DNA of 63,256 nucleotides, the filler included. It is 6 parts of 6 records of this genome, joined end to end, with 100 filler letters (N's around TTAATTAATTAA, not from the genome) between each part and the next. Parts side by side here need not be neighbours in the genome. Positions count along the whole stretch, not along the records: positions 54,030 to 63,256 come from DRR723986_5542; 5 more parts are not named here. The stretch is one strand, 5' to 3'. The translations under genes and the position numbers were made by a program. Below are positions 16,219 to 63,256 of the stretch, piece after piece. A model generated the notes under the pieces. That model did no database searches. It was not told the origin of the DNA and saw only the letters and a program-made list of their open reading frames with translations. Within the stretch, counting starts at the first letter, position 1. Each line of letters opens with the position of its first letter.

Positions 16219-16318
16219 NNNNNNNNNNNNNNNNNNNNNNNNNNNNNNNNNNNNNNNNNNNNTTAATTAATTAANNNNNNNNNNNNNNNNNNNNNNNNNN
16301 NNNNNNNNNNNNNNNNNN
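16219..16318. other. artificial contig spacer
   Basis: N44-TTAATTAATTAA-N44; stops in all six frames. Confidence 0.99.
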
Positions 16319-27073: not shown

Positions 27074-27173
27074 NNNNNNNNNNNNNNNNNNNNNNNNNNN
27101 NNNNNNNNNNNNNNNNNTTAATTAATTAANNNNNNNNNNNNNNNNNNNNNNNNNNNNNNNNNNNNNNNNNNNN
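27074..27173. other. artificial contig spacer
   Basis: N44-TTAATTAATTAA-N44. Confidence 0.99.
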
Positions 27174-34207: not shown

Positions 34208-34307
34208 NNNNNNNNNNNNNNNNNNNNNNNNNNNNNNNNNNNNNNNNNNNNTTAATTAATTAANNNNNNNNNNNNNNNNNNNNNNNNNNNNNNNNNNNNN
34301 NNNNNNN
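34208..34307. other. artificial contig spacer
   Basis: N44-TTAATTAATTAA-N44. Confidence 0.99.
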
Positions 34308-42138: not shown

Positions 42139-42238
42139 NNNNNNNNNNNNNNNNNNNNNNNNNNNNNNNNNNNNNNNNNNNNTTAATTAATTAANNNNNN
42201 NNNNNNNNNNNNNNNNNNNNNNNNNNNNNNNNNNNNNN
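42139..42238. other. artificial contig spacer
   Basis: N44-TTAATTAATTAA-N44. Confidence 0.99.
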
Positions 42239-52786: not shown

Positions 52787-53929
52787 ATGCCCGTCCTGAA
52801 ATCCAGTCTCGACGTGGCAGGCCCGCGCTTTGCCACGAACAAGGCCGCCATGGAACGCCTGCTCGAAGAGTTGCGCGAGCACACCGCCAAAGCCGTGCTT
52901 GGCGGACCTGAAGCCTCGCGCCAGCGCCATGTCGACCGGGGCAAGCTGCTCCCGCGCGATCGGGTCGAACGCCTGCTGGACCCCGGCAGCGCCTTCCTTG
53001 AGGTTGGCGCGCTGGCCGCCCACGGCATGTATGACGATGAAGCGCCCGCCGCCGGGATCATCACGGGCGTGGGCCGGGTCGAAGGCCGGGAATGCCTGAT
53101 CGTCTGCAACGATCCGACCGTGAAGGGCGGCGCCTACTTCCCCGTCACGGTTAAAAAGCATTTGCGCGCCCAGGAAATCGCGCTCGAAAACCATTTGCCC
53201 TGCATCTACCTTGTCGACAGCGGCGGGGCAAACCTGCCCCACCAGTCGGAAGTCTTTCCGGACCGGGAACATTTCGGCCGTATCTTCTACAACCAGGCCC
53301 AGATGAGCGCGAAGGGCATTCCCCAGATCGCCTCCGTCATGGGCAGCTGTACGGCAGGCGGCGCCTATGTGCCGGCCATGTCGGACGAAACGGTCATCGT
53401 GCGCAAGCAGGGCACGATCTTCCTCGGCGGCCCGCCACTGGTGAAGGCCGCGACGGGGGAGGTGATCTCGGCAGAAGATCTCGGCGGCGCCGACGTGCAT
53501 GCCCGCCGCTCCGGCGTGGCAGACCATTATGCCGCCCACGACTCCCACGCCCTTGCTATTGTGCGCTCCATCGTCCGTACGCTGGCGAAGCCGAAGCCCC
53601 AGCCATTCGACCTGACTGAACCGGCCGAGCCGCTCTATGATCCGGCAGAACTGCACGGCCTCGTGCCGCAGGATGTGCGCGAGCCCTATGATGCCCGCGA
53701 AGTCATCGCCCGCCTCGTCGACGGATCGGAATTCCATGAGTTCAAGAAACTCTATGGTGAAACCCTCGTCTGCGGCTTCGCCCGGCTCTACGGCATGCCG
53801 GTGGCGATCCTCGCCAATAACGGCATCCTGTTCTCGGAGAGCGCGCAGAAGGCTGCGCACTTTATCGAACTGGCGGACCAGCGCCGTATCCCGCTCGTCT
53901 TCCTGCAGAACATCACCGGCTTCATGGTC
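52787..53929 (+). CDS. mccB: 3-methylcrotonyl-CoA carboxylase beta subunit, 3'-truncated
   Basis: [42 protein letters not shown]. Confidence 0.93.
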
Positions 53930-54029
53930 NNNNNNNNNNNNNNNNNNNNNNNNNNNNNNNNNNNNNNNNNNNNTTAATTAATTAANNNNNNNNNNNNNNN
54001 NNNNNNNNNNNNNNNNNNNNNNNNNNNNN
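53930..54029. other. artificial contig spacer
   Basis: N44-TTAATTAATTAA-N44. Confidence 0.99.
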
Positions 54030-54030
54030 C

Positions 54031-54732: not shown

Positions 54733-56319
54733 TCAGGCTAGCCAGCGGCGAACACCCAAACTGTTGGATTTACTTGGTGTGCCGTCATCCTCATCACCAA
54801 GAAATCGAGTGTATGCTTCCATCATGGTGCGTAATGACTTTTTTTCCGGATCCTCATCTTTGGAGACGCTAGAAGTTCGAGATGTGTAGCGGGACGGGCC
54901 ACCAATGAAGACAGGTCGCGTAGGATCGGCGGCCTGAAGCCATTCTCGCGGCTGTAGATCGACGTTTTTCCCGACGATGATCCGGTTCGAGAAGGCATTT
55001 TCGACGATTTCGCGTTTTTCAGCTGCAGTCCCGGAAGTATGAAGCCCTGCAAGGTTTTTCATGAGTTCGAGGAACATTCTACGTTCGTGCAGTATGGCCG
55101 CTGGATCGGGTAGATTTCGGAGTTCTTGCCGCAAGTTGGTGATCGAGAGTTCCAACTCGATCTTCTTGGAATGGTAGAAAGTAGCGTCGATCTCGCCGTC
55201 GATCAGGAGGTCCGCCAACCGGTTCAGACGCGCTTCCTCGGATGACAGGCGCAGCTTTAGGGCCTCCGCTCTGCCCACGACCTCGGCCATGCAATCCTTT
55301 CTCAGCCAAGAGGCCGCAAGCCGACTTGAGCGTGCCGGAGTGATCTCCAGCCTCCTCAGGCAGTCGACAACCTGGGCTTCAATACAATCTTCGCGGATCG
55401 TCTTTGTGGGGCACTCGCGGACCTGGCACCGGTAGTACACATTGCCTTTCTGCCGCTCCGGCGACATCGGTCCACTGCAGAGACCGCAGCGAAAGAGGCC
55501 CTGGTAGACATGGTTGTGGCGGGTGATGACCTTTCCATTCCGGCCCGCCTTGACGTCCTGGGCACGCTTGAACAGCGACGCCGAGATTAGCGGCTGATGA
55601 ACTCCCCTGTAGGACTTTCCTGAACGCATGATCACGATCAGCCCCGTGTAGAACGGATTATTGATGATGGACTCAATTCCACAGAGGCTCAGTGGCCGGT
55701 TCGCGGCGTTCCTGAGACCGCGCCGGTTCATTTCTGCTCTCAGCGATCTCAGGGAGTGTCGCCCACTTGCGTAAAGCTCGAACATCTCTGTGATAAGCGG
55801 CGCTGTCTTTGGGTCCGGCGTCTTTGGCCGGCCCTTACCGTTGTCGAGGTAGCCAATTGGTGCTCTGAACGGATAGAGACCTTGTTTCAGGCGCCCATGA
55901 AGACCCTTGATGGTCTCTTCGCGCAAATTCCTGATGTAGTCCGCTGCGATGACCGCTTGAATGTCAGCCGTCAAACGCCCTCCACGCGAGTTGAAGTCGA
56001 GGTTCTCCGTGGCGATGAACACATCGACACCCATGTCCGGGAGTTCGCTGAACATGGCCCAATCTCTGAGATTGCGGGCCGAGCGATCGATCTTATGGAT
56101 GATCACGCCCCGTGCCGCTCCTCGCTTCAACTGCCCAAGCATCTGATTGAAGATCGGGCGCCCGCCTTTTGCGGCAGTCTGCCTTTCCTCGAACCATTTG
56201 ACGACCGACAGGTTCTGGCGACTCGCAAAGCTTGTTATGGCATCCTTCTGAGCCTCGAGTGATACCCCCTCTCCTTGCTTCTGAGTGGACACTCGGATGT
56301 AGCCAAAGCACGGTTTCAT
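54733..56319 (-). CDS. large serine recombinase (resolvase, recombinase, Zn-ribbon and coiled-coil domains)
   Basis: YIRVST catalytic Ser, KIDRSARN, APIGY, NPFYTG, HQPLIS, CGLC...YYRC....C. Confidence 0.93.
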   Translation of the reverse strand: MKPCFGYIRVSTQKQGEGVSLEAQKDAITSFASRQNLSVVKWFEERQTAAKGGRPIFNQMLGQLKRGAARGVIIHKIDRSARNLRDWAMFSELPDMGVDVFIATENLDFNSRGGRLTADIQAVIAADYIRNLREETIKGLHGRLKQGLYPFRAPIGYLDNGKGRPKTPDPKTAPLITEMFELYASGRHSLRSLRAEMNRRGLRNAANRPLSLCGIESIINNPFYTGLIVIMRSGKSYRGVHQPLISASLFKRAQDVKAGRNGKVITRHNHVYQGLFRCGLCSGPMSPERQKGNVYYRCQVRECPTKTIREDCIEAQVVDCLRRLEITPARSSRLAASWLRKDCMAEVVGRAEALKLRLSSEEARLNRLADLLIDGEIDATFYHSKKIELELSITNLRQELRNLPDPAAILHERRMFLELMKNLAGLHTSGTAAEKREIVENAFSNRIIVGKNVDLQPREWLQAADPTRPVFIGGPSRYTSRTSSVSKDEDPEKKSLRTMMEAYTRFLGDEDDGTPSKSNSLGVRRWLA

Positions 56320-56471
56320 AAATCATTTGATTTAGTCTCTGACTCTATCATATCCGCAGGATTCCGCGACTCTGGTAGCTCCGGCCATGGCCAAGACCCG
56401 TCGGCCAGTAACCTTAAGAACATGCGTTTGCAGAGCGCGAGGTGGCGATCGATGTGGGGATCATTGGTCAT
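56316..56471 (-). CDS. 51-aa ORF translationally coupled to the recombinase
   Basis: MTNDPHIDRHLALCKRMFLRLLADGSWPW...; ATGA overlap; ATG 6 nt after a -10 box (leaderless). Confidence 0.65.
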   Translation of the reverse strand: MTNDPHIDRHLALCKRMFLRLLADGSWPWPELPESRNPADMIESETKSNDL

Positions 56472-56477
56472 TTCGGC

Positions 56478-56510
56478 AGTGTACCGAACCACCTTGGTCA
56501 GCCTAGTCGG
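56478..56510 (-). promoter_or_regulatory. element promoter motif copy 1
   Basis: CCGACTAGGC-N17-TACACT-N6-ATG. Confidence 0.75.
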
Positions 56511-56539
56511 CGCGCCATTCGGGATCTGGATAAAGTAGG

Positions 56540-56567
56540 AAGAAAAGGCGACCCCGAAGGGTCGCCT
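56540..56567 (-). terminator. rho-independent terminator after the DUF932 gene
   Basis: AGGCGACC-CUUCGG-GGUCGCCU followed by UUUCUU. Confidence 0.85.
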
Positions 56568-56581
56568 GAGGTCTGACGGGA

Positions 56582-57340
56582 TCATGCCAGCGCCTGCAAG
56601 GTTGCAGGGCTGAACGCACCCGGCTCTCGACCCGCCTCACAGGTCGCATCAAGCACCTGGTGCAGACGATGCGTGAGCGCCGGGGCTTCCGCGATCCGGC
56701 CTTCAAGCGCATGCGTCACACAGTTGAAGAGCCGCCACGCGGTCTTCACGCCCCAGTCATGGGGCGGGTTCTCCCACCGCTCCATCACCGACGGGATGCG
56801 GGTGACGGTGATGACTCCCGCCCGGTAGAGCTCGAGCACCACGTGGTCGGCCTCGCCTTGCGTGAGCGTCCGGCTGCGGTATCGGGTGATGGTCCGATGC
56901 TGGGCTTCGCGCTGATTGGCCAGAGGCTCGATCAGGTCTCCGACAAGTCCCGGCAGGTCGCGCTTGGCCAGGGTCGTGTGCCGCCGCTTGACCACGTGGT
57001 CCGCAATGAAGGCGAGGTTGTCACAAACGAAGACCCGGGACCCGAAGGATATCCCGATCGGGAAGGTCTTGTCGTGGCTGTTTCTCAGGCCCACCGCGTC
57101 GGTGTAATCCCCGTAGGTGCTTCTGAGCGACAGGACCCCGAAGTAACGCATCCCGTCAGGCGTTACCCCGTGGTGTTCCTCCTCCACGGTATGGCCGTAG
57201 AAGCCGAGCGTGAGCCGGACCACGTCCACCAGGCGGTGGTGCGGGATTGGCACATGAGTCCGGGTGGCGTCCGGGGTCTCCAGGTGCCGAAGGCCGGAAT
57301 AGTCGAGCGGGTCCGCGCCCGCGTGCAGCATGAGCGTCAT
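56582..57340 (-). CDS. DUF932-family protein
   Basis: THVPIPH, GLRNSHDK, GSRVFVCDNLAF, RRHT, TAWRLFNCVT; RBS GGAGA. Confidence 0.8.
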   Translation of the reverse strand: MTLMLHAGADPLDYSGLRHLETPDATRTHVPIPHHRLVDVVRLTLGFYGHTVEEEHHGVTPDGMRYFGVLSLRSTYGDYTDAVGLRNSHDKTFPIGISFGSRVFVCDNLAFIADHVVKRRHTTLAKRDLPGLVGDLIEPLANQREAQHRTITRYRSRTLTQGEADHVVLELYRAGVITVTRIPSVMERWENPPHDWGVKTAWRLFNCVTHALEGRIAEAPALTHRLHQVLDATCEAGREPGAFSPATLQALA

Positions 57341-57385
57341 GGCTTGTCTCCAATGATGTTGGGAAAGGAACAGGGTTCCGACACC

Positions 57386-57418
57386 AGTCTACGGGAGCAT
57401 GCCGCATGGCCTAGTCGG
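57386..57418 (-). promoter_or_regulatory. element promoter motif copy 2
   Basis: CCGACTAGGC-N17-TAGACT, then CTGTTCCTTTCCC. Confidence 0.75.
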
Positions 57419-57435
57419 GGCAATATCGGCTGATG

Positions 57436-58617
57436 CTATGCGGCCAGAGAACGGGCCGGTAATGGCTGCGTCATCGCAGAGAAGGCCTGGGTCTTCTGTC
57501 CCTCAACCATCAACTGCACGAAGGCGCGGTGATTGGGCTGGGAGACAAGATCGGTCACATCTACCGTACCGAGTTGTTGGGCAAAGGTCGGGGCATCCAT
57601 GGCCCCGAGGCGGAACACCATCAGGCTGCCCACATTGCCAAGGACAGCCTCGAACACCTCGCGCTCGGTCTGGACGATATGCTGATGGGCCAAGGTCAGG
57701 CCCAAACCGTATTTACGGGTCTCGGAGAGCATCCCCGTGAAAGCCGCGGTCGTAAAGCAATGGAACTCGTCGACATGGACCATGAAAGGGCGACGCTCTG
57801 CCTGAGGGAGATCATGGCGTGAGAAGCCCGCGTTCATGAGACTTGAGACGAGAAGGCCACCAAGGACATTGGCCGTATCAATGCCAAGGCGCCCCTTGGC
57901 GAGGTTCACGATCAGGATTTGGCCCTCGTCTATGATCCTGCGGAAGCGGAGCGGCTCTTCAGGCTCGCAGATGGCAGTGCGGACGACCGGGTTGGCCAGG
58001 AAAGCTCCAAGCTTGTTGGCAATCGGCGCGACCCCGTCCACGGCTGTTTGGTAGTTCATGTTCGGGAATTCCTGCGTCCAGAAGGCCAGGACCTGCGCAT
58101 CGGTCACACGGGAGATGACCTGCCGCCGAAAGTCCTTCTCGACATAAAGTCGGACGATGTCCCGGATGTCCGCACTTGGCTGTTCAAGGAGCGCAAGGAT
58201 TGCATAGCGAAGGAGGTGCTCCATGCGGGCCCCCCAGGCATCGGCCCATTGCTTCTTTAGGCTCTCGATTAGACCAGACGCTATGAGGGGACGGTAGGAT
58301 GCCGAGACGCGCGTCAGCGGATTGTACCCGTAGGGGCTTCTGGGATCCGCGACATTCCAGTAGTGATGAGGCACGGTGAGACGGGCGGAAAGCTCCGCCG
58401 CAAGATCTCCATGCGGATCAATGAGGCAAAAGCCGATCCCTGCACGTGCATCATGCAGGGCGAGATTGCCCAGAAGCGTGGATTTACCCGTCCCGGTCTG
58501 GCCGATGACATAGAGATGCATCAGGCGATCCGCGAGGCGGATTCCGAAGGGGATATCCCCATAGTGGCGACAACCAAGGCCAAGGGGTGTGATGTGGTCA
58601 GATGACAAGCGCATCAT
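57436..58617 (-). CDS. soluble TrwB/TraD/HerA-like P-loop ATPase
   Basis: HLYVIGQTGTGKSTLL (Walker A), IDPHGDL, VHVDEFH (Walker B), ETRKYGLGLTLAHQ, GNVGS; no TM segments; start 58617 or 58614. Confidence 0.85.
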   Translation of the reverse strand: MMRLSSDHITPLGLGCRHYGDIPFGIRLADRLMHLYVIGQTGTGKSTLLGNLALHDARAGIGFCLIDPHGDLAAELSARLTVPHHYWNVADPRSPYGYNPLTRVSASYRPLIASGLIESLKKQWADAWGARMEHLLRYAILALLEQPSADIRDIVRLYVEKDFRRQVISRVTDAQVLAFWTQEFPNMNYQTAVDGVAPIANKLGAFLANPVVRTAICEPEEPLRFRRIIDEGQILIVNLAKGRLGIDTANVLGGLLVSSLMNAGFSRHDLPQAERRPFMVHVDEFHCFTTAAFTGMLSETRKYGLGLTLAHQHIVQTEREVFEAVLGNVGSLMVFRLGAMDAPTFAQQLGTVDVTDLVSQPNHRAFVQLMVEGQKTQAFSAMTQPLPARSLAA

Positions 58618-58620
58618 GGC

Positions 58621-58654
58621 ATTGTGGGGCGGCACGGCGACAAACCCTAGGCAG
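58621..58654 (-). promoter_or_regulatory. element promoter motif, degenerate copy 4
   Basis: CTGCCTAGGG-N18-CACAAT-N6-ATG(58614). Confidence 0.5.
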
Positions 58655-58696
58655 CCATTCAGACGCCTATCCAATATCCTCTGGCGCGATAGATCA

Positions 58697-58729
58697 CCGA
58701 CTAGGCGAACGCGTTCTCTGAGCTAGACT
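58697..58729 (+). promoter_or_regulatory. element promoter motif copy 3
   Basis: CCGACTAGGC-N17-TAGACT, then CTGTTCCTTCCC. Confidence 0.75.
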
Positions 58730-58817
58730 GGGATCAGAGCTGTTCCTTCCCTTATCGCCTTTCGCCGGGTGCGCCCGAACCCCTTCGGGCGGCCACCCAA
58801 GCGGAAGGAGATGTCCT

Positions 58818-59348
58818 ATGGTGACGATCAAGGGAGAAGAGGTTGGCACGCTCGGCACGATGCCTGTGTGCGAAATCTGTGGCTCGGAACGCGTTGTTCA
58901 CGATGCCTGGGCCTGCTGGAACCGCGACTATGCCATCTGGGAACTCGAGACCGTGTTCGACCAGATGTATTGCCGACAATGCGAGGCTGAAACACGTTTC
59001 ACCTGGAGGCGGGTTGATACCGGTCCATGTATCGCCGTGCGGGACCTCAACGACAGGTTTCGGAAACAGGGTCTCGGCAACGGCAGCGTCATGATCACCG
59101 CCGGACTGCAAGAGTGCGGAGAGGCGTTCATTCGCAAAGCTGTGGATGCAGTCCGCGCCTTTGACGCCTTCACAGAAGCCAATGACCCCTGGGGCGAGCA
59201 TGACTTCGGCGCGATCGAGATCGACGGCGAAAAGGTCTTCTGGAAGATCGACGCCTACGATCCTAGCCTGACAACCGGGTCTGAAAACCCAGCAAACGAG
59301 GCCAAGACTCACCGCGTCCTAACGATCATGCTCGCACGGGAATATTGA
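58818..59348 (+). CDS. DUF3768-family protein with N-terminal Zn ribbon
   Basis: CEIC...CRQC; LNDRFR, FDAFTEANDPWGEHDFG, FWKIDAYD, RVLTIMLAREY; RBS AAGGAG. Confidence 0.85.
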   Translation: MVTIKGEEVGTLGTMPVCEICGSERVVHDAWACWNRDYAIWELETVFDQMYCRQCEAETRFTWRRVDTGPCIAVRDLNDRFRKQGLGNGSVMITAGLQECGEAFIRKAVDAVRAFDAFTEANDPWGEHDFGAIEIDGEKVFWKIDAYDPSLTTGSENPANEAKTHRVLTIMLAREY

Positions 59349-59352
59349 TCAC

Positions 59353-59381
59353 AGCCGCTCCGGAGACGGGGCGGCTCCTTT
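59353..59381 (+). terminator. terminator after the DUF3768 gene
   Basis: AGCCGCUCCG-GAGA-CGGGGCGGCU followed by CCUUU. Confidence 0.7.
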
Positions 59382-59445
59382 GCGCTTCCGGCCCATTCCG
59401 GACCTTCACCCTAAGCTCCCGATGCTGCGGTCGCAGCCCGCTTTC

Positions 59446-59517
59446 CGGACATTCGCTGCAGCAGCGAAATCTCGAGGTCCATGAATGCGAAAAGTGCGGA
59501 CGAGGCGCTCTTTCGCT
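59446..59517 (+). repeat. cargo-flanking motif A (copy 2)
   Basis: CGGACATTCGC...TGCGGACGAGGCGCTCTTTCGCT, similar to 31567-31624 (minus strand). Confidence 0.5.
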
Positions 59518-59602
59518 GCACTCGAACCAATGTCTTCTATGTGCACATTGCGGTTAACTTCACAGTAGTAAGGCATTCTGGTCGAGGGTGTGCCAATGAT
59601 CA

Positions 59603-62026
59603 TTAGACACCTTTAGGCAGGGCGTTTTCAACATCGAACAGGCAAGGCGGGCAGACTGTGGCGCGAGTGGTTTCGCCGATGACCAGAACCTCCACCTCTC
59701 TGCCGGTTTCACCATGGGACGGGTGGATATAGGCCATGGCAAGGTTCTTGCCGGTACGATAGCCCCATGCGGCCGACGTTATTGAACCGATTGGCACGCC
59801 ATCGACGAAAACCCCTTCTCCCGGGTGGGCCGGTCCCGCCTTGCTATGGACATCCAGAACAACACGTTCTCTGCGATTTCCAGCTTTGGCTTGCGCCTGA
59901 AGCCCGTGTTTTCCGGGGAAATCCTTGGTCATGTCGACAAAACGATGCAGTCCTGCTTCGATAGGATTGAACTCGGTGATGAAATCACCCTTCCAGTGGC
60001 CATAGCCTTTTTCCAGACGCATCGAGTCGATCGCGAACATGCCGAAATTCGACAGGTCAAACGCTTCTCCCGCCTTGGTCAGGATTTCGTAGGCGGCAAA
60101 AAGCTGATTGTTGGGAATGTGCAGTTCGAACGCCTGTTCGCCGGAATAGCTGATGGCGATGGCCAGCGCCTCGACGTGACCGACAAAAACACGCTGCGCC
60201 GTCAGCCAGGGGAAGTCAGACTGCGCCCAATTCGTGCGCGGCGATACGGCGGCCAGCAGGTCACGGGTCTTGGGGCCAGCAAGCACCATCATCGTGTGGG
60301 TGTTGGTGCGGCTTTCGATGCGAATGTCTGAGCCAACTGGCAGGTGCTCGGTCAACCAATCCATATCGTGGTATTCAGCGGTCGCCGCTGACCCGTAGAA
60401 GATGCTCCCATCCGGCAGCGGTACAATCGTCGCTTCGCCCGAGATATTTCCTTTCGGTGTCAGGAAATAGCACAGGCTGGTCCTTCCAGTCTTGGCCGAC
60501 ACCTTGGAACAGGTCAGACTGCTGATCCAGTCGAGCGCATCGGTTCCGCTAATGCGATAATGGTTGAACCCTGACAACTCGGCCAATCCAACATTTGCAC
60601 GCAGCGCCTCGATCTCGCCCCCCACGACATCGTGCCAGTTCTGGAATGCGTATCCGTGGGTGGGTTTGAAATCCGCATCCGGCTTGTAGAACTCTGTCCG
60701 CTCCCAGCCATTGACGACGCCAAACTCGGCACCTTTGGATTTCAGCACCGGGTAAAGCGGTGATGCCTTGGCCGGGCGACCGGCCGGGCGGTGTTCATGC
60801 GGCAGGTGCCAGCGAAATTCATGCTGGTAATCCTCGATGGATTTCAGCGCAGTGAACTCGGTATTGGCAAAGCTGGTGATGCGGCGCGGGTCAAGCTGCC
60901 AGCTATCCCATTCAGTTTCGCCGTGCACAATCGTCTGCGCAAGCATCTTGCCATATCCGCCGCCTTCGCCGATGCCCACGCGCAATCCGTTCATCGACCA
61001 GCAATTGCGCAGGCCCGGTTGCTTGCCAACCAGCGGCCCCGCATCCGAGGCATAGGCAATCGGGCCGTTTACCACCGACTTGATGCCGACCTCCTGCAGG
61101 CAGGGCAGACGGTCAAAGATCGGTGCCATCTTCGGCAACAGGCGATCCAGATCATCGGGGCAAAGCGCATTGACGAAATCGGGGTCGATCCCATCCATCC
61201 CGAACGTCTTGCAGTCATGTTCGTAGATGCCAACCAGAAGGCCTCTCTTTTCCTGCCGCATGTAGAATGTGTCACGCGGGCAGCGCACCATGGGCACGCG
61301 GGTGTCACGCTCGACCAGTTCCGGGATGTCTTCGGTGACGAAATACATGTGTTCCATCGCGATGACCGGGTATTCGATGCCCATCAGCGCGCCGACTTCA
61401 TTTGCGCGATAGCCCGCCGCGATCACGATATGCTCGGCGGTGATCGTGCCGCTTTCGGTTGTCACCAGCCACTCGTCATTGGGCAGCTGTTTCAGGGCGA
61501 TCACGGGCGTGTTCCGATGAATCTTCGCCCCCATTTTGCGAGACCGTGCGGCCAATGCCTGACACAGCTGCGCAGGGTCAATGTCTCCGTCCTGTTCATC
61601 CCACATCGCTGCCAGAACCCCGTCGGTGTTCAGCAACGGATTGCGCCGCTTTGCCTCAGAGGCATCAAGCAGATCAAACTCAATCCCCAGCCCTTTGGCC
61701 ACCGACATGATGTGATGCACTTCGTCAACATGAGTGGGGTTGGTCAAAAGCCGCATGCCACCCGTGGCATGGTGATAGTTGATCGGATAGGCTGGGTCAT
61801 CGGCCAGCTCCTTGTAAAGCTTGATGGTGTAGTCACGCAGCAAGAGTAGCAACTGGTTGAACGCCACACTGGGACATTGCGCCGCCGAATGCCAAGTTGT
61901 GCCGCTGGTCAACTCGTTGCGTTCCAGCAGTACCGCATCGGTCCAGCCTTCCTGACAAAGGTGGTAGAGAGCCGACAATCCACCAACGCCACCCCCAACA
62001 ACAACGACACGCGCATGGCTTTGCAT
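59603..62026 (-). CDS. GcvT-family FAD-dependent amine dehydrogenase (dimethylglycine dehydrogenase-like)
   Basis: VVVVGGGVGG, LTSGTTWHSA, NGWER, SYSGEQAFELH, SMRLEKGY. Confidence 0.9.
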   Translation of the reverse strand: MQSHARVVVVGGGVGGLSALYHLCQEGWTDAVLLERNELTSGTTWHSAAQCPSVAFNQLLLLLRDYTIKLYKELADDPAYPINYHHATGGMRLLTNPTHVDEVHHIMSVAKGLGIEFDLLDASEAKRRNPLLNTDGVLAAMWDEQDGDIDPAQLCQALAARSRKMGAKIHRNTPVIALKQLPNDEWLVTTESGTITAEHIVIAAGYRANEVGALMGIEYPVIAMEHMYFVTEDIPELVERDTRVPMVRCPRDTFYMRQEKRGLLVGIYEHDCKTFGMDGIDPDFVNALCPDDLDRLLPKMAPIFDRLPCLQEVGIKSVVNGPIAYASDAGPLVGKQPGLRNCWSMNGLRVGIGEGGGYGKMLAQTIVHGETEWDSWQLDPRRITSFANTEFTALKSIEDYQHEFRWHLPHEHRPAGRPAKASPLYPVLKSKGAEFGVVNGWERTEFYKPDADFKPTHGYAFQNWHDVVGGEIEALRANVGLAELSGFNHYRISGTDALDWISSLTCSKVSAKTGRTSLCYFLTPKGNISGEATIVPLPDGSIFYGSAATAEYHDMDWLTEHLPVGSDIRIESRTNTHTMMVLAGPKTRDLLAAVSPRTNWAQSDFPWLTAQRVFVGHVEALAIAISYSGEQAFELHIPNNQLFAAYEILTKAGEAFDLSNFGMFAIDSMRLEKGYGHWKGDFITEFNPIEAGLHRFVDMTKDFPGKHGLQAQAKAGNRRERVVLDVHSKAGPAHPGEGVFVDGVPIGSITSAAWGYRTGKNLAMAYIHPSHGETGREVEVLVIGETTRATVCPPCLFDVENALPKGV

Positions 62027-62137
62027 GAGCCACCTCCTGAAATTCAGATTTCAGGCACAATTATCCGCCAGAATATATCTTTTGAAAAACTGAATAATTG
62101 AAATACAAAAGTCACAAATGCTGAATTATGAGTCACT

Positions 62138-63073
62138 ATGGATATCAGCCTGAAAGCCCTGCGATACTTCATGGCCGCCGCCGAAAGCGGTAGCCTGACC
62201 GAGGCGTCCAAGAAGATGCACGTGGTGCCATCCGCCATTCTGGCCGCGGTTAACCAAGTGGAAGAGGCCTTCGGGTTGCAGCTGACCGTGCGACAACGGT
62301 CCAAGGGGATTGCGCCAACATCTACTGGCAAAATACTCATGCCGCGCGTCCAGCATCTGCTGGACGAATATGAGGCGCTGATGAGCCAGGGGGCCGAGAT
62401 GCGCACGCAATTGATCGGCACGTTGCGGGTGGGATACTATGCGCCCGTTGCTCCGGCTTTCCTGCCTGCCATCGCGCGAAATCTGCTGGCGGACAACCCG
62501 CGTGTCGATATCAAGTTCATCGAATGTGACACCCGATCAGCCCAGGCCGGTTTATTGTCCGGTGATTTCGACGTCATATTATGTGTTGCCGAAAGCATGG
62601 CCCCGGGTGTGACCTATGAAACCCTGATCGAAGTGCCGGGCTACCTTCTCGTACCCGCGCAGCACAGCTTCGCCTCGCGAACCGATGTCTCCCTGTCTGA
62701 GCTGAACAACGAGCCCATGGTTCTCCTCGATCTGCCTGTGATCAGCGACTACTACAGCCGGGTATTCGAGGCCGCTGACGTCAACCCGCATGTCGCCTGC
62801 ACGGCAACAACGCTCGAAATGGTGCGAAGTCTGGTTGGCATGGGCGTAGGCTCTTCGCTGTTACACATGCGCCCAAATACGCGCGTGACCTACGCAGGTG
62901 AAAAGGTCGTGGAAGTGCCATTGTACCCAGCCCCTGATCTGCTGAAAATTGTTCTTGGATACATGCCGAACAATCCGCGCCGCGTTGTGAAACACTTCAC
63001 CGACAGCCTGCGAGAGTTGTTTTCGAAAGAAGAGGCAAACCGCTTTCTGGTAACATCGCAAGCCAACAGATGA
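62138..63073 (+). CDS. LysR-family regulator, divergent from the dehydrogenase
   Basis: LRYFMAAAESGSLTEASKKMHV..SAI HTH; EMVRSLVG.G.G. Confidence 0.9.
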   Translation: MDISLKALRYFMAAAESGSLTEASKKMHVVPSAILAAVNQVEEAFGLQLTVRQRSKGIAPTSTGKILMPRVQHLLDEYEALMSQGAEMRTQLIGTLRVGYYAPVAPAFLPAIARNLLADNPRVDIKFIECDTRSAQAGLLSGDFDVILCVAESMAPGVTYETLIEVPGYLLVPAQHSFASRTDVSLSELNNEPMVLLDLPVISDYYSRVFEAADVNPHVACTATTLEMVRSLVGMGVGSSLLHMRPNTRVTYAGEKVVEVPLYPAPDLLKIVLGYMPNNPRRVVKHFTDSLRELFSKEEANRFLVTSQANR

Positions 63074-63110
63074 CTATTTCGAAGTCTGCTTTGTGTCGCT
63101 TCTCGCCGGT

Positions 63111-63144
63111 TCATGCGTAGCGCAGGATATGGCGATTTGGGCTC
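63111..63144 (+). repeat. cargo-flanking motif B (copy 2)
   Basis: TCATGCGTAGCGCAGGATATGGCGATTTGGGCTC; 25/34 identical to the reverse complement of 30481-30514. Confidence 0.55.
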
Positions 63145-63256
63145 CTTGCGGACATCGGAATCTGTGCAGCATCTTGTGATATGCTGACCTGGTCAACGTC
63201 GGGTTGTCGTTTTGGGAGGGCATGGCGGATCGGAGGATCAGTCATGGAAACACCAA

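Follow-up and report, generated by a model that had tools for sequence, protein, structure and literature searches.

A five-gene serine recombinase cluster and the alphaproteobacterial island family to which it appears to belong

Elements of the Tn4451/Tn4453 family of integrative and mobilizable elements (IMEs) measure ~6 kb, have a large serine recombinase at one end and need a helper in order to transfer; in Tn4451 there are a Mob relaxase and an oriT. Here we describe a 4.7 kb unit of five genes at positions 54733-59381 of a 63,256-nucleotide stretch of joined contigs (hereafter the window), which also has a serine recombinase at one end but an ATPase of the TrwB/HerA class instead of a relaxase and oriT. 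The recombinase has the domain order of the SPbeta SprA/YokA and Listeria A118 integrases—catalytic, recombinase, zinc ribbon. Unlike in those systems, the candidate recombination site lies inside the 3' coding end of the recombinase gene, the ~49-aa partner protein is unrelated and no phage genes are present. The ATPase shares its superfamily with the type IV coupling proteins (TrwB, VirD4, TraD, DotL), from which it differs in its size of ~385 aa, the lack of an N-terminal anchor and the absence from the unit of a cognate relaxase or type IV secretion system (T4SS). Relatives of the unit recall the tRNA-targeting islands with a P4-type integrase and AlpA in their position on the 3' side of tRNA genes and in the integrase that some of them carry, whereas a tRNA gene, a tyrosine integrase and AlpA are all missing from the window copy. 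A further parallel is offered by the staphylococcal cassette chromosome (SCC) elements, described as tandem, att-flanked, recombinase-less cassettes that are enriched in anti-phage systems and mobilized by Ccr large serine recombinases (PMC11470126). Some relatives of our unit resemble SCC and SCCmec in having a large serine recombinase beside what may be tandem defense cassettes, and the recombinase has weak NCBIfam similarity to CcrB, CcrA and CcrC. The differences are that the target is not rlmH, the hosts are Alphaproteobacteria and the repeats overlap the recombinase gene.

The locus is best explained as part of a large family of integrative islands in Alphaproteobacteria, with a constant core of recombinase, ~49-aa partner, soluble ATPase and DUF3768 protein, to which the window copy adds a DUF932 protein. 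We tentatively favor the view that this copy is a minimal integrative member, moved by its own serine recombinase through a site in the 3' end of the recombinase gene. The features on which the argument depends are the following.

54733-56319, minus strand: large serine recombinase, 528 aa (Pfam Resolvase 2e-28, Recombinase 2.4e-11, Zn_ribbon_recom 4.5e-9)
54869-54906, minus strand: conserved ~40-bp motif inside the recombinase 3' end, a candidate recombination site (nhmmer, E = 6e-5)
56316-56465, minus strand: conserved small protein, ~49 aa, from the alignment of 40 homologues (called as an open reading frame (ORF) of 89 aa, 56316-56585)
56582-57340, minus strand: DUF932 protein, 252 aa (Pfam PF06067, 1.9e-8, 34.8 bits, cut-off 23)
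57436-58674, minus strand: soluble P-loop ATPase of the TrwB/VirD4/HerA class, ORF of 412 aa (Pfam TrwB_AAD_bind, DUF87)
58753-58814, plus strand: leader of the DUF3768 gene, with a long hairpin that takes up the Shine-Dalgarno (SD) sequence in minimum free energy (MFE) folds of single leaders
58818-59348, plus strand: Zn-ribbon and DUF3768 protein, 176 aa, divergent from the ATPase (Pfam PF12599, 2e-35)

All five ORFs are uninterrupted, and the Pfam searches uphold every domain call made in the earlier note on this DNA; compared with their homologues the genes are full length, and their catalytic residues are intact. To follow the unit beyond the window, loci around relatives were fetched from genomes (62) and metagenomes (76), together with two plasmid regions. 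Nine duplicate loci (L034, L050, L066, L087, L097, L117, L118, L123, L126) were dropped, as were three that are distant or fragmentary (L002, L063, L064). The analysis covers the remaining 127 non-redundant loci, among them the window, in which the ATPase match reaches 45% identity or more. Many of these are short contigs, so that the co-occurrence counts are lower bounds. The genes recur as a unit, as the earlier note had supposed, in many Alphaproteobacteria: the recombinase and the DUF3768 gene are each found in 82 of the 127 ATPase loci, the small ORF in 76, in each case directly upstream of the recombinase, and the DUF932 gene in 15. The exact gene order of the window is found in six loci (L003, L004, L005, L065, L067, L070), all of which have a regulator module beyond the DUF3768 gene, where the window has a dehydrogenase.

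The additional genes of the relatives were identified by clustering ORFs across loci and scanning representatives with Pfam. Regulator genes are frequent, with an XRE-type helix-turn-helix (HTH) protein in 71/127 loci and a 158-aa partner of no known family (F7) in 73/127. Transfer-type genes include Replic_Relax (PF13814; 27/127) and a 691-aa ATPase of DUF87/TrwB type (31/127), and there are also AlpA (15/127), a P4-type tyrosine integrase (16/127) and three small families (F18, F20, F23). A full version, exemplified by L031, L076 and L070, begins with AlpA, Replic_Relax, the long ATPase, F18, F20, the 158-aa protein and the HTH gene, and continues with DUF3768, the soluble ATPase, (DUF932), the small ORF, the recombinase, cargo, the tyrosine integrase and the tRNA. 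The cargo is often anti-phage: Thoeris-type TIR, caspase, SIR2 with HerA, nSTAND and type I restriction genes. The larger islands span ~10-20 kb, and those with Replic_Relax and the anchored 691-aa ATPase look, by gene content, like mobilizable islands. The notion of a free-standing new class of small element, raised in the earlier note, does not hold, as in most relatives the unit is the core of such a larger island. None of the extra conserved genes is present in the window, which makes the window copy a stripped-down form. Looked at as an IME, it has its own integrase, the serine recombinase, and no relaxase. Other short forms, without regulator, relaxase and long ATPase, sit between housekeeping genes (L028, L033, L129), and one locus (L036) is a decaying copy with a split recombinase and a degraded DUF3768 gene. 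Differences in block order among the loci require at least three different circles, so that permutation of a single gene circle fails to account for them. A 136-kb repABC-type plasmid of Sulfitobacter mediterraneus (NZ_CP081110.1; L001, 97127-101181) also has the module, in the order small ORF, recombinase, hypothetical gene, DUF3768 and ATPase, followed by transposase genes at the place of DUF932.

The recombinase matches the integrase family phrog_95 in PHROG at 1.4e-79, and its C-terminal part contains PF07508 (2.4e-11) and the zinc ribbon PF13408 (4.5e-9). In 40 homologues the catalytic serine S11, R9 and the cysteines 278, 281, 298 and 303 are invariant. The profile built from these homologues matches SPbeta SprA/YokA and the A118 integrase between positions 153 and 456, where the recombinase domain and the zinc ribbon lie. 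Against the Ccr equivalogs of NCBIfam the protein scores 89 bits with CcrB (cut-off 900), 65 with CcrA (700) and 44.5 with CcrC (900); membership of the Ccr family is ruled out by scores so far below the equivalog cut-offs. The gene directly upstream, whose stop overlaps the recombinase start, was called too long: in 40 homologues conservation begins at M41 of the 89-aa ORF, and the product is of ~49 aa with the consensus HLxRHLxLCKRxYxRM..G.WPW..DSP..ED.VES. This small protein has no match in Pfam, NCBIfam, PHROG, PADLOC or the PDB and is a candidate directionality or accessory factor.

Using k-mer counts and an nhmmer model, we found a motif of the form GTGxCC..CG...CAC-TCTCGAAC, coding for GGPxRxTSRT, at a fixed position 60-180 nt before the recombinase stop in the window and its relatives, where a variable inverted repeat precedes it. 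In the window the motif occurs once, and no cassette is present. Extra copies occur downstream in seven loci (L003, L017, L031, L045, L075, L112, L124), always on the same strand, and three of the intervals between copies are of kilobase size. One of them holds a complete Gabija system (L075:4583-8557; PADLOC GajA 2.9e-202, GajB 4.4e-126), another a ubiquitin-like operon of Multi_ubiq, ThiF/DUF6791 and DUF6527 genes (L045:7331-9850), and the third a gene for a DUF4145 protein (L112:1527-3499). These are cassette-like defense inserts without a recombinase of their own. The insert in L045 separates the recombinase from the ATPase, which are neighbors in sister loci, and beyond its distal motif copy comes a second, diverged version of the recombinase tail. 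Just ahead of the distal copy, two small inserts (L075, L017) have 76 bp in common. The motif-flanked inserts look like the result of site-specific insertion into the motif. Alternatively, the motif repeats could be scars left by islands that integrated one after another at a single tRNA site. There is some resemblance of the motif to the 3' end of tRNA-Phe in L003, L048 and L049, but actual tRNA genes score nil with the motif model.

Of the 78 loci whose recombinase match is full-length, 24 have a tRNA gene downstream of the recombinase within the fetched DNA. All 24 genes are on the opposite strand, with their 3' end facing the 3' end of the recombinase, and they include tRNA-Phe, Leu, Lys, Asn, Arg, His, Gln, Pro and Cys. 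The distance from the recombinase stop to the tRNA 3' end is -21 bp in L071, +48 bp in L036 and +151 bp in L028, with no tyrosine integrase between; in the remaining tRNA loci cargo, often with a tyrosine integrase, fills the interval. Among the 16 loci with a P4-type tyrosine integrase, this gene adjoins the tRNA gene wherever the tRNA was scanned. Two elements of 88% identity (L030, L032) diverge ~10 nt past the recombinase stop, into a truncated Glu_synthase ORF in one case and mrpA in the other, which makes the recombinase end the element end in at least some members. Direct repeats of tRNA or junction sequence (20 nt, up to 3 mismatches) were not found in L028, L036, L071, L019 or L030, and a search of 301 genomes for the empty site of L028 matched only the tRNA-side flank. 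In one locus (L053:14448-15092) degenerate fragments of a second soluble ATPase gene adjoin tRNA-Phe, ~3.3 kb downstream of the intact gene, and may have been left by an island that occupied this site earlier.

The Pfam matches of the ATPase are to TrwB_AAD_bind (1.8e-5, 24.3 bits, cut-off 20.5), DUF87 (4.2e-5) and, below the cut-off, TraG-D_C (3.9e-4); its profile finds TrwB (4.7e-7), HerA (4.8e-4) and DotL (7.7e-4) in the PDB. The Walker A sequence GQTGTGKS at residues 58-65 and D302 are invariant among homologues, most of which are 384-400 aa long, so that translation probably starts at Met20 or Met21. The highest Kyte-Doolittle mean over 19 residues is 1.36, no window reaches 1.6 and no transmembrane segment is found, whereas the 691-aa paralogue of the relatives has 22 windows of at least 1.6 and N-terminal hydrophobic segments. 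The description of the protein as an ATPase without a membrane anchor is therefore borne out, both by the profile, which places it in the TrwB/HerA class, and by the lack of a hydrophobic segment. Because 31 relatives have the anchored paralogue as well, it is unlikely that the soluble ATPase acts as the actual coupling protein. Homologues are abundant: 5832 of 8000 scored candidates match at E <= 1e-20, and the 120 matches listed, at 66-100% identity, come from Alphaproteobacteria of several orders and from a few other metagenome-assembled genomes. The ATPase matches mad8 of PADLOC at 2.8e-15, and the other four cluster proteins have no PADLOC match; a MADS defense system is ruled out, since no other mad component is present. 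The position of the ATPase gene shifts relative to the other blocks among relatives, and in the window an inverted repeat of 20 nt (80% complementary; 57409-57428 and 58687-58706) brackets the gene just outside its stop and start.

The two DUF proteins are less readily placed. Homologues of the DUF932 protein, 60-87% identical, occur in 11 loci; its sequence profile has no match among PDB structures, and its AlphaFold2 (AF2) model, of pLDDT 69.6, gives partial fold matches only, the best at Z 7.1 and none convincing. In the DUF3768 protein PF12599 covers residues 93-175 (121.1 bits, cut-off 25), and the N-terminal CxxC...CxxC part matches phrog_32296; C18, C21, C52, C55 and a DP..EHD block are invariant in 40 homologues. 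The AF2 model (pLDDT 86.9) consists of a ribbon-type beta domain and an alpha/beta domain that is weakly RelE/ParE-like: the best match is RelE, at Z 4.5 with a root-mean-square deviation of 4.0 over 73 residues, and RelE/ParE-type toxins, counted by name, make up ~14 of the 50 fold rows listed, all with Z <5. Foldseek returned nothing at E <= 0.001, with an AcrVIA2 row at E 0.21; this row and the RelE-type rows can serve as leads only. The sequence profile found one chance-level row in the PDB (E 0.039).

The leader of the DUF3768 gene contains a conserved hairpin. In all 36 evaluable leaders the MFE fold, at -28 to -44 kcal/mol, pairs at least four of the five SD bases. Of the 40 rows, four were excluded because the anchors missed the stem or the SD. 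The control for this result is not strict, as the pairing persists in 63% of cases when the 14-nt 5' flank is shuffled. Both stems vary in sequence between loci while keeping their complementarity. Leaders were folded singly, since RNAalifold caught only the inner stem owing to an alignment shifted by one column. Rfam has no family for the leader, with one chance-level match at E 0.41. The arrangement of the predicted hairpin suggests tight translational control of DUF3768.

The ends of the window copy were examined in related sequences. Similarity to relatives in blastn stops at 59348-59399 on the right and within the variable recombinase tail on the left, and the X19 contig ends at 59376. 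Logan contigs place the stretch in public runs (19 of the 23 rows listed, from 13 studies). An isolate, organism C, has a 7773-bp contig that matches 54845-59376 with 257 differences (94% identity) and then runs leftwards for 3237 unlike bases; the resemblance breaks off at the motif, and mismatches are dense over 54884-54939. The same organism has the dehydrogenase at 96% identity, on a Logan contig whose end abuts the first. Three metagenomes contain the junction of matB and recombinase seen in the window; in these, the match of a dehydrogenase contig to the window, with two differences, begins only at 59383, although the contig itself runs on for another ~4 kb. Contigs of metagenomes break at 59383, 59421/22 and 59458/60. 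The sequence at 59383-59476 is a dispersed short repeat, so that the breaks there may be an assembly effect and define no end. No joint across the element is listed among Logan contigs, which cannot show rare circles.

A search for the empty site found other neighbors beside the plasmid relatives of matB. Among 401 genomes of the order of G001, another Rhodobacterales genome, there was one close relative, G389, and 61 further genomes held nothing closer. G389 matches 59512-63155 at 86% nucleotide identity, with 91% amino acid identity in the dehydrogenase, and has none of the five cluster genes within 19 kb of its dehydrogenase-LysR pair. The pair is thus chromosomal and not the cargo for which the earlier note took it. 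At the place of the element G389 has a small tyrosine recombinase (a 210-aa ORF of the Phage_integrase family) and an AraC-type gene; the site at the dehydrogenase 3' end is variable between relatives. The dehydrogenase-LysR pair (L158, G389:C1) and matB (L168, G389:C2) are on different contigs, and matB is followed there by a convergent unrelated 726-aa gene and a LysR gene, the layout of the window with different genes.

The remaining features of the window concern its assembly and the surroundings of the unit.

16219-16318, 27074-27173, 34208-34307, 42139-42238 and 53930-54029: linkers, N44-TTAATTAATTAA-N44
56546-56567, minus strand: G+C-rich hairpin and T-run between DUF932 and the small ORF, from a scan for terminator-like sites
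59354-59375, plus strand: hairpin directly after DUF3768, read from the sequence
59383-59476, no strand: dispersed short repeat in the right flank with a GCTGCG-GT-CGCAGC palindrome, probably outside the element

The linkers chain at least six contigs, and because of the one at 53930-54029 the element has no contiguous sequence to the left of 54030. Genes cut at linkers, such as a carboxyl transferase ending at 53929, are contig ends and not truncations, and adjacency across linkers is meaningless. The contig of the element starts at 54030, within the 3' end of a malonyl-CoA synthase gene (matB; match 1.2e-80) and only ~700 bp left of the recombinase. To the right, Pfam identifies an 807-aa DAO and GCV_T dehydrogenase followed by a LysR regulator, and the window ends 3.9 kb beyond DUF3768. 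A scan of the whole window found no tRNA gene. The Pfam scan of the element's contig agrees with the earlier report that relaxase, Rep, T4SS and capsid genes are absent, and the lack of a regulator is confirmed as well: the regulator, Replic_Relax relaxase and long coupling ATPase of the relatives have no homologue anywhere in the window. The claim that the genes have their own terminators is weak. Hairpins do follow DUF932 and DUF3768, but terminator-like sites are not enriched (6, against 4.2 +/- 1.9 in shuffled sequence). A promoter scan returned 0 sites, and the G+C composition shows no clear step at either end. The repeat at 59383-59476 matches several contigs of G001 and G389 and appears in varied metagenome contexts.

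Under the view that we favor, the recombinase would cut and rejoin DNA at the 54869-54906 motif, which overlaps the 3' end of its own gene, and recombination there would carry the unit, or DNA attached to it, into the chromosome and out again. The small protein may set the direction or the level of this reaction. The ATPase, of a hexameric type and anchor-less, would handle the double-stranded DNA of the excised form by translocating it, resolving it or handing it over, and would not dock at a secretion channel. DUF3768 would be made only once the leader hairpin that sequesters its SD opens. Since the window has no relaxase, anchored coupling protein, regulator or tyrosine integrase, any transfer between cells would need these in trans, from a full-size relative or a conjugative element. 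We infer that the window copy integrates and excises with the dependence on a helper that this implies, and that it may still be mobile.

Five intact genes, the recurrence of the gene set, short forms between housekeeping genes, the divergence of L030 and L032 just past the recombinase stop, tRNA genes that face the recombinase 3' end, a motif at one fixed gene position that is duplicated downstream in seven loci, and a 94% identical copy in organism C that departs from the window exactly at the motif argue for a minimal integrative member. Several observations weigh against it. Searches for a flanking repeat, an empty site and a circle junction of the window copy found none, and the sole link between its intergenic ends is an inverted repeat of 16 nt and 88%, possibly due to chance. 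Group-B relatives have the motif within the gene set, between recombinase and ATPase, where it cannot form the outer boundary; the tyrosine integrase may be the real integrase of the 16 islands that have it. The parts given to the ATPase and the small protein, like every other step of the mechanism, are proposals. Finally, the regulator pair in all six relatives of the same gene order means that the window copy may be a deletion product. This last point leads to the rather doubtful possibility that the unit is an immobile remnant, the eroded core of a larger mobilizable island from which regulator, relaxase, long ATPase and outer att site have gone, with genes that persist though they have ceased to move. 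The frequency of the regulator partner F7 and of the long ATPase in the family agrees with such a loss, as do the missing att-like repeat or second motif copy at the right end and the decay seen in L036, and the organism C copy beside its dehydrogenase on abutting contigs is compatible with vertical inheritance. Erosion accounts less well for five intact ORFs with invariant catalytic residues, for short forms that recur independently between differing housekeeping genes (L028, L033, L129) and for a left flank in organism C that differs from that of the window from the motif onwards.

The extra direct motif copies in seven loci can also be read as a sign that the recombinase mainly inserts and releases tandem, mostly anti-phage cassettes at its own 3'-end site, with the window as an empty platform and the ATPase, DUF932 and DUF3768 as accessory genes for DNA handling, defense or anti-defense. 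We consider this unlikely, although much is consistent with it: the Gabija, ubiquitin-like and DUF4145 genes between copies, the L045 insert that parts recombinase from ATPase and ends in a duplicated recombinase tail, the 76 bp common to small inserts in L075 and L017, the variable defense cargo adjoining the module in many loci, the mad8 match of the ATPase, and the precedent of tandem att-flanked defense cassettes described for Ccr (PMC11470126). Yet the repeats are confined to seven loci and may be what remains of islands that integrated in succession at a single tRNA site, the window has one copy and no cassette, and neither a cassette circle nor recombination has been observed. A broader form of the idea is speculative: a widespread alphaproteobacterial platform, with its recombination site in the 3' coding end of the recombinase gene, would collect tandem recombinase-less cassettes of the Gabija or ubiquitin-like kind, each bringing a replacement enzyme tail, and the dedicated anchor-less DNA pump of TrwB/HerA type, the 49-aa partner, DUF3768 and DUF932 would be its handling machinery, with the window as an empty minimal example. 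It is most improbable that the unit is the edge of a conventional integrative and conjugative element with its transfer genes outside the contig or the window. The short flanks, 700 bp on the left and 3.9 kb on the right, leave room for such genes, but the left flank is the 3' end of matB, the dehydrogenase-LysR flank is chromosomal in G389 with no element gene nearby, and the 127 loci showed no further recurrent family, in a survey that included no scan aimed at T4SS genes.

The island family is widespread and apparently undescribed; within the terms searched, the open-access literature yielded no description of it. The same literature contained no mention of DUF3768, and, judged by title and the start of the abstract, no paper naming DUF932 concerns its function. 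Replic_Relax appears, in the accessible portion of PMC11104534, only in a table row for a gammaproteobacterial element, and a preprint on small serine recombinases as markers of defense systems deals, in the part available, with a different recombinase class (10.1101/2025.10.07.681051). If our interpretation is true, a gene set that is very common in marine and soil Alphaproteobacteria, whose ATPase alone has thousands of homologues and which involves two Pfam families of unknown function, would gain its first functional frame. The finding for the window itself is more modest—one intact minimal copy, with a putative mobility. The soluble coupling-protein-like ATPase beside a recombinase raises the question of whether an excised circle could be handled without a membrane-anchored coupling protein. 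A large serine recombinase with a site overlapping its own gene, and defense cassettes stacked beside it, would be a proteobacterial counterpart of SCC, and the island family would then be a practical bait for finding defense systems.

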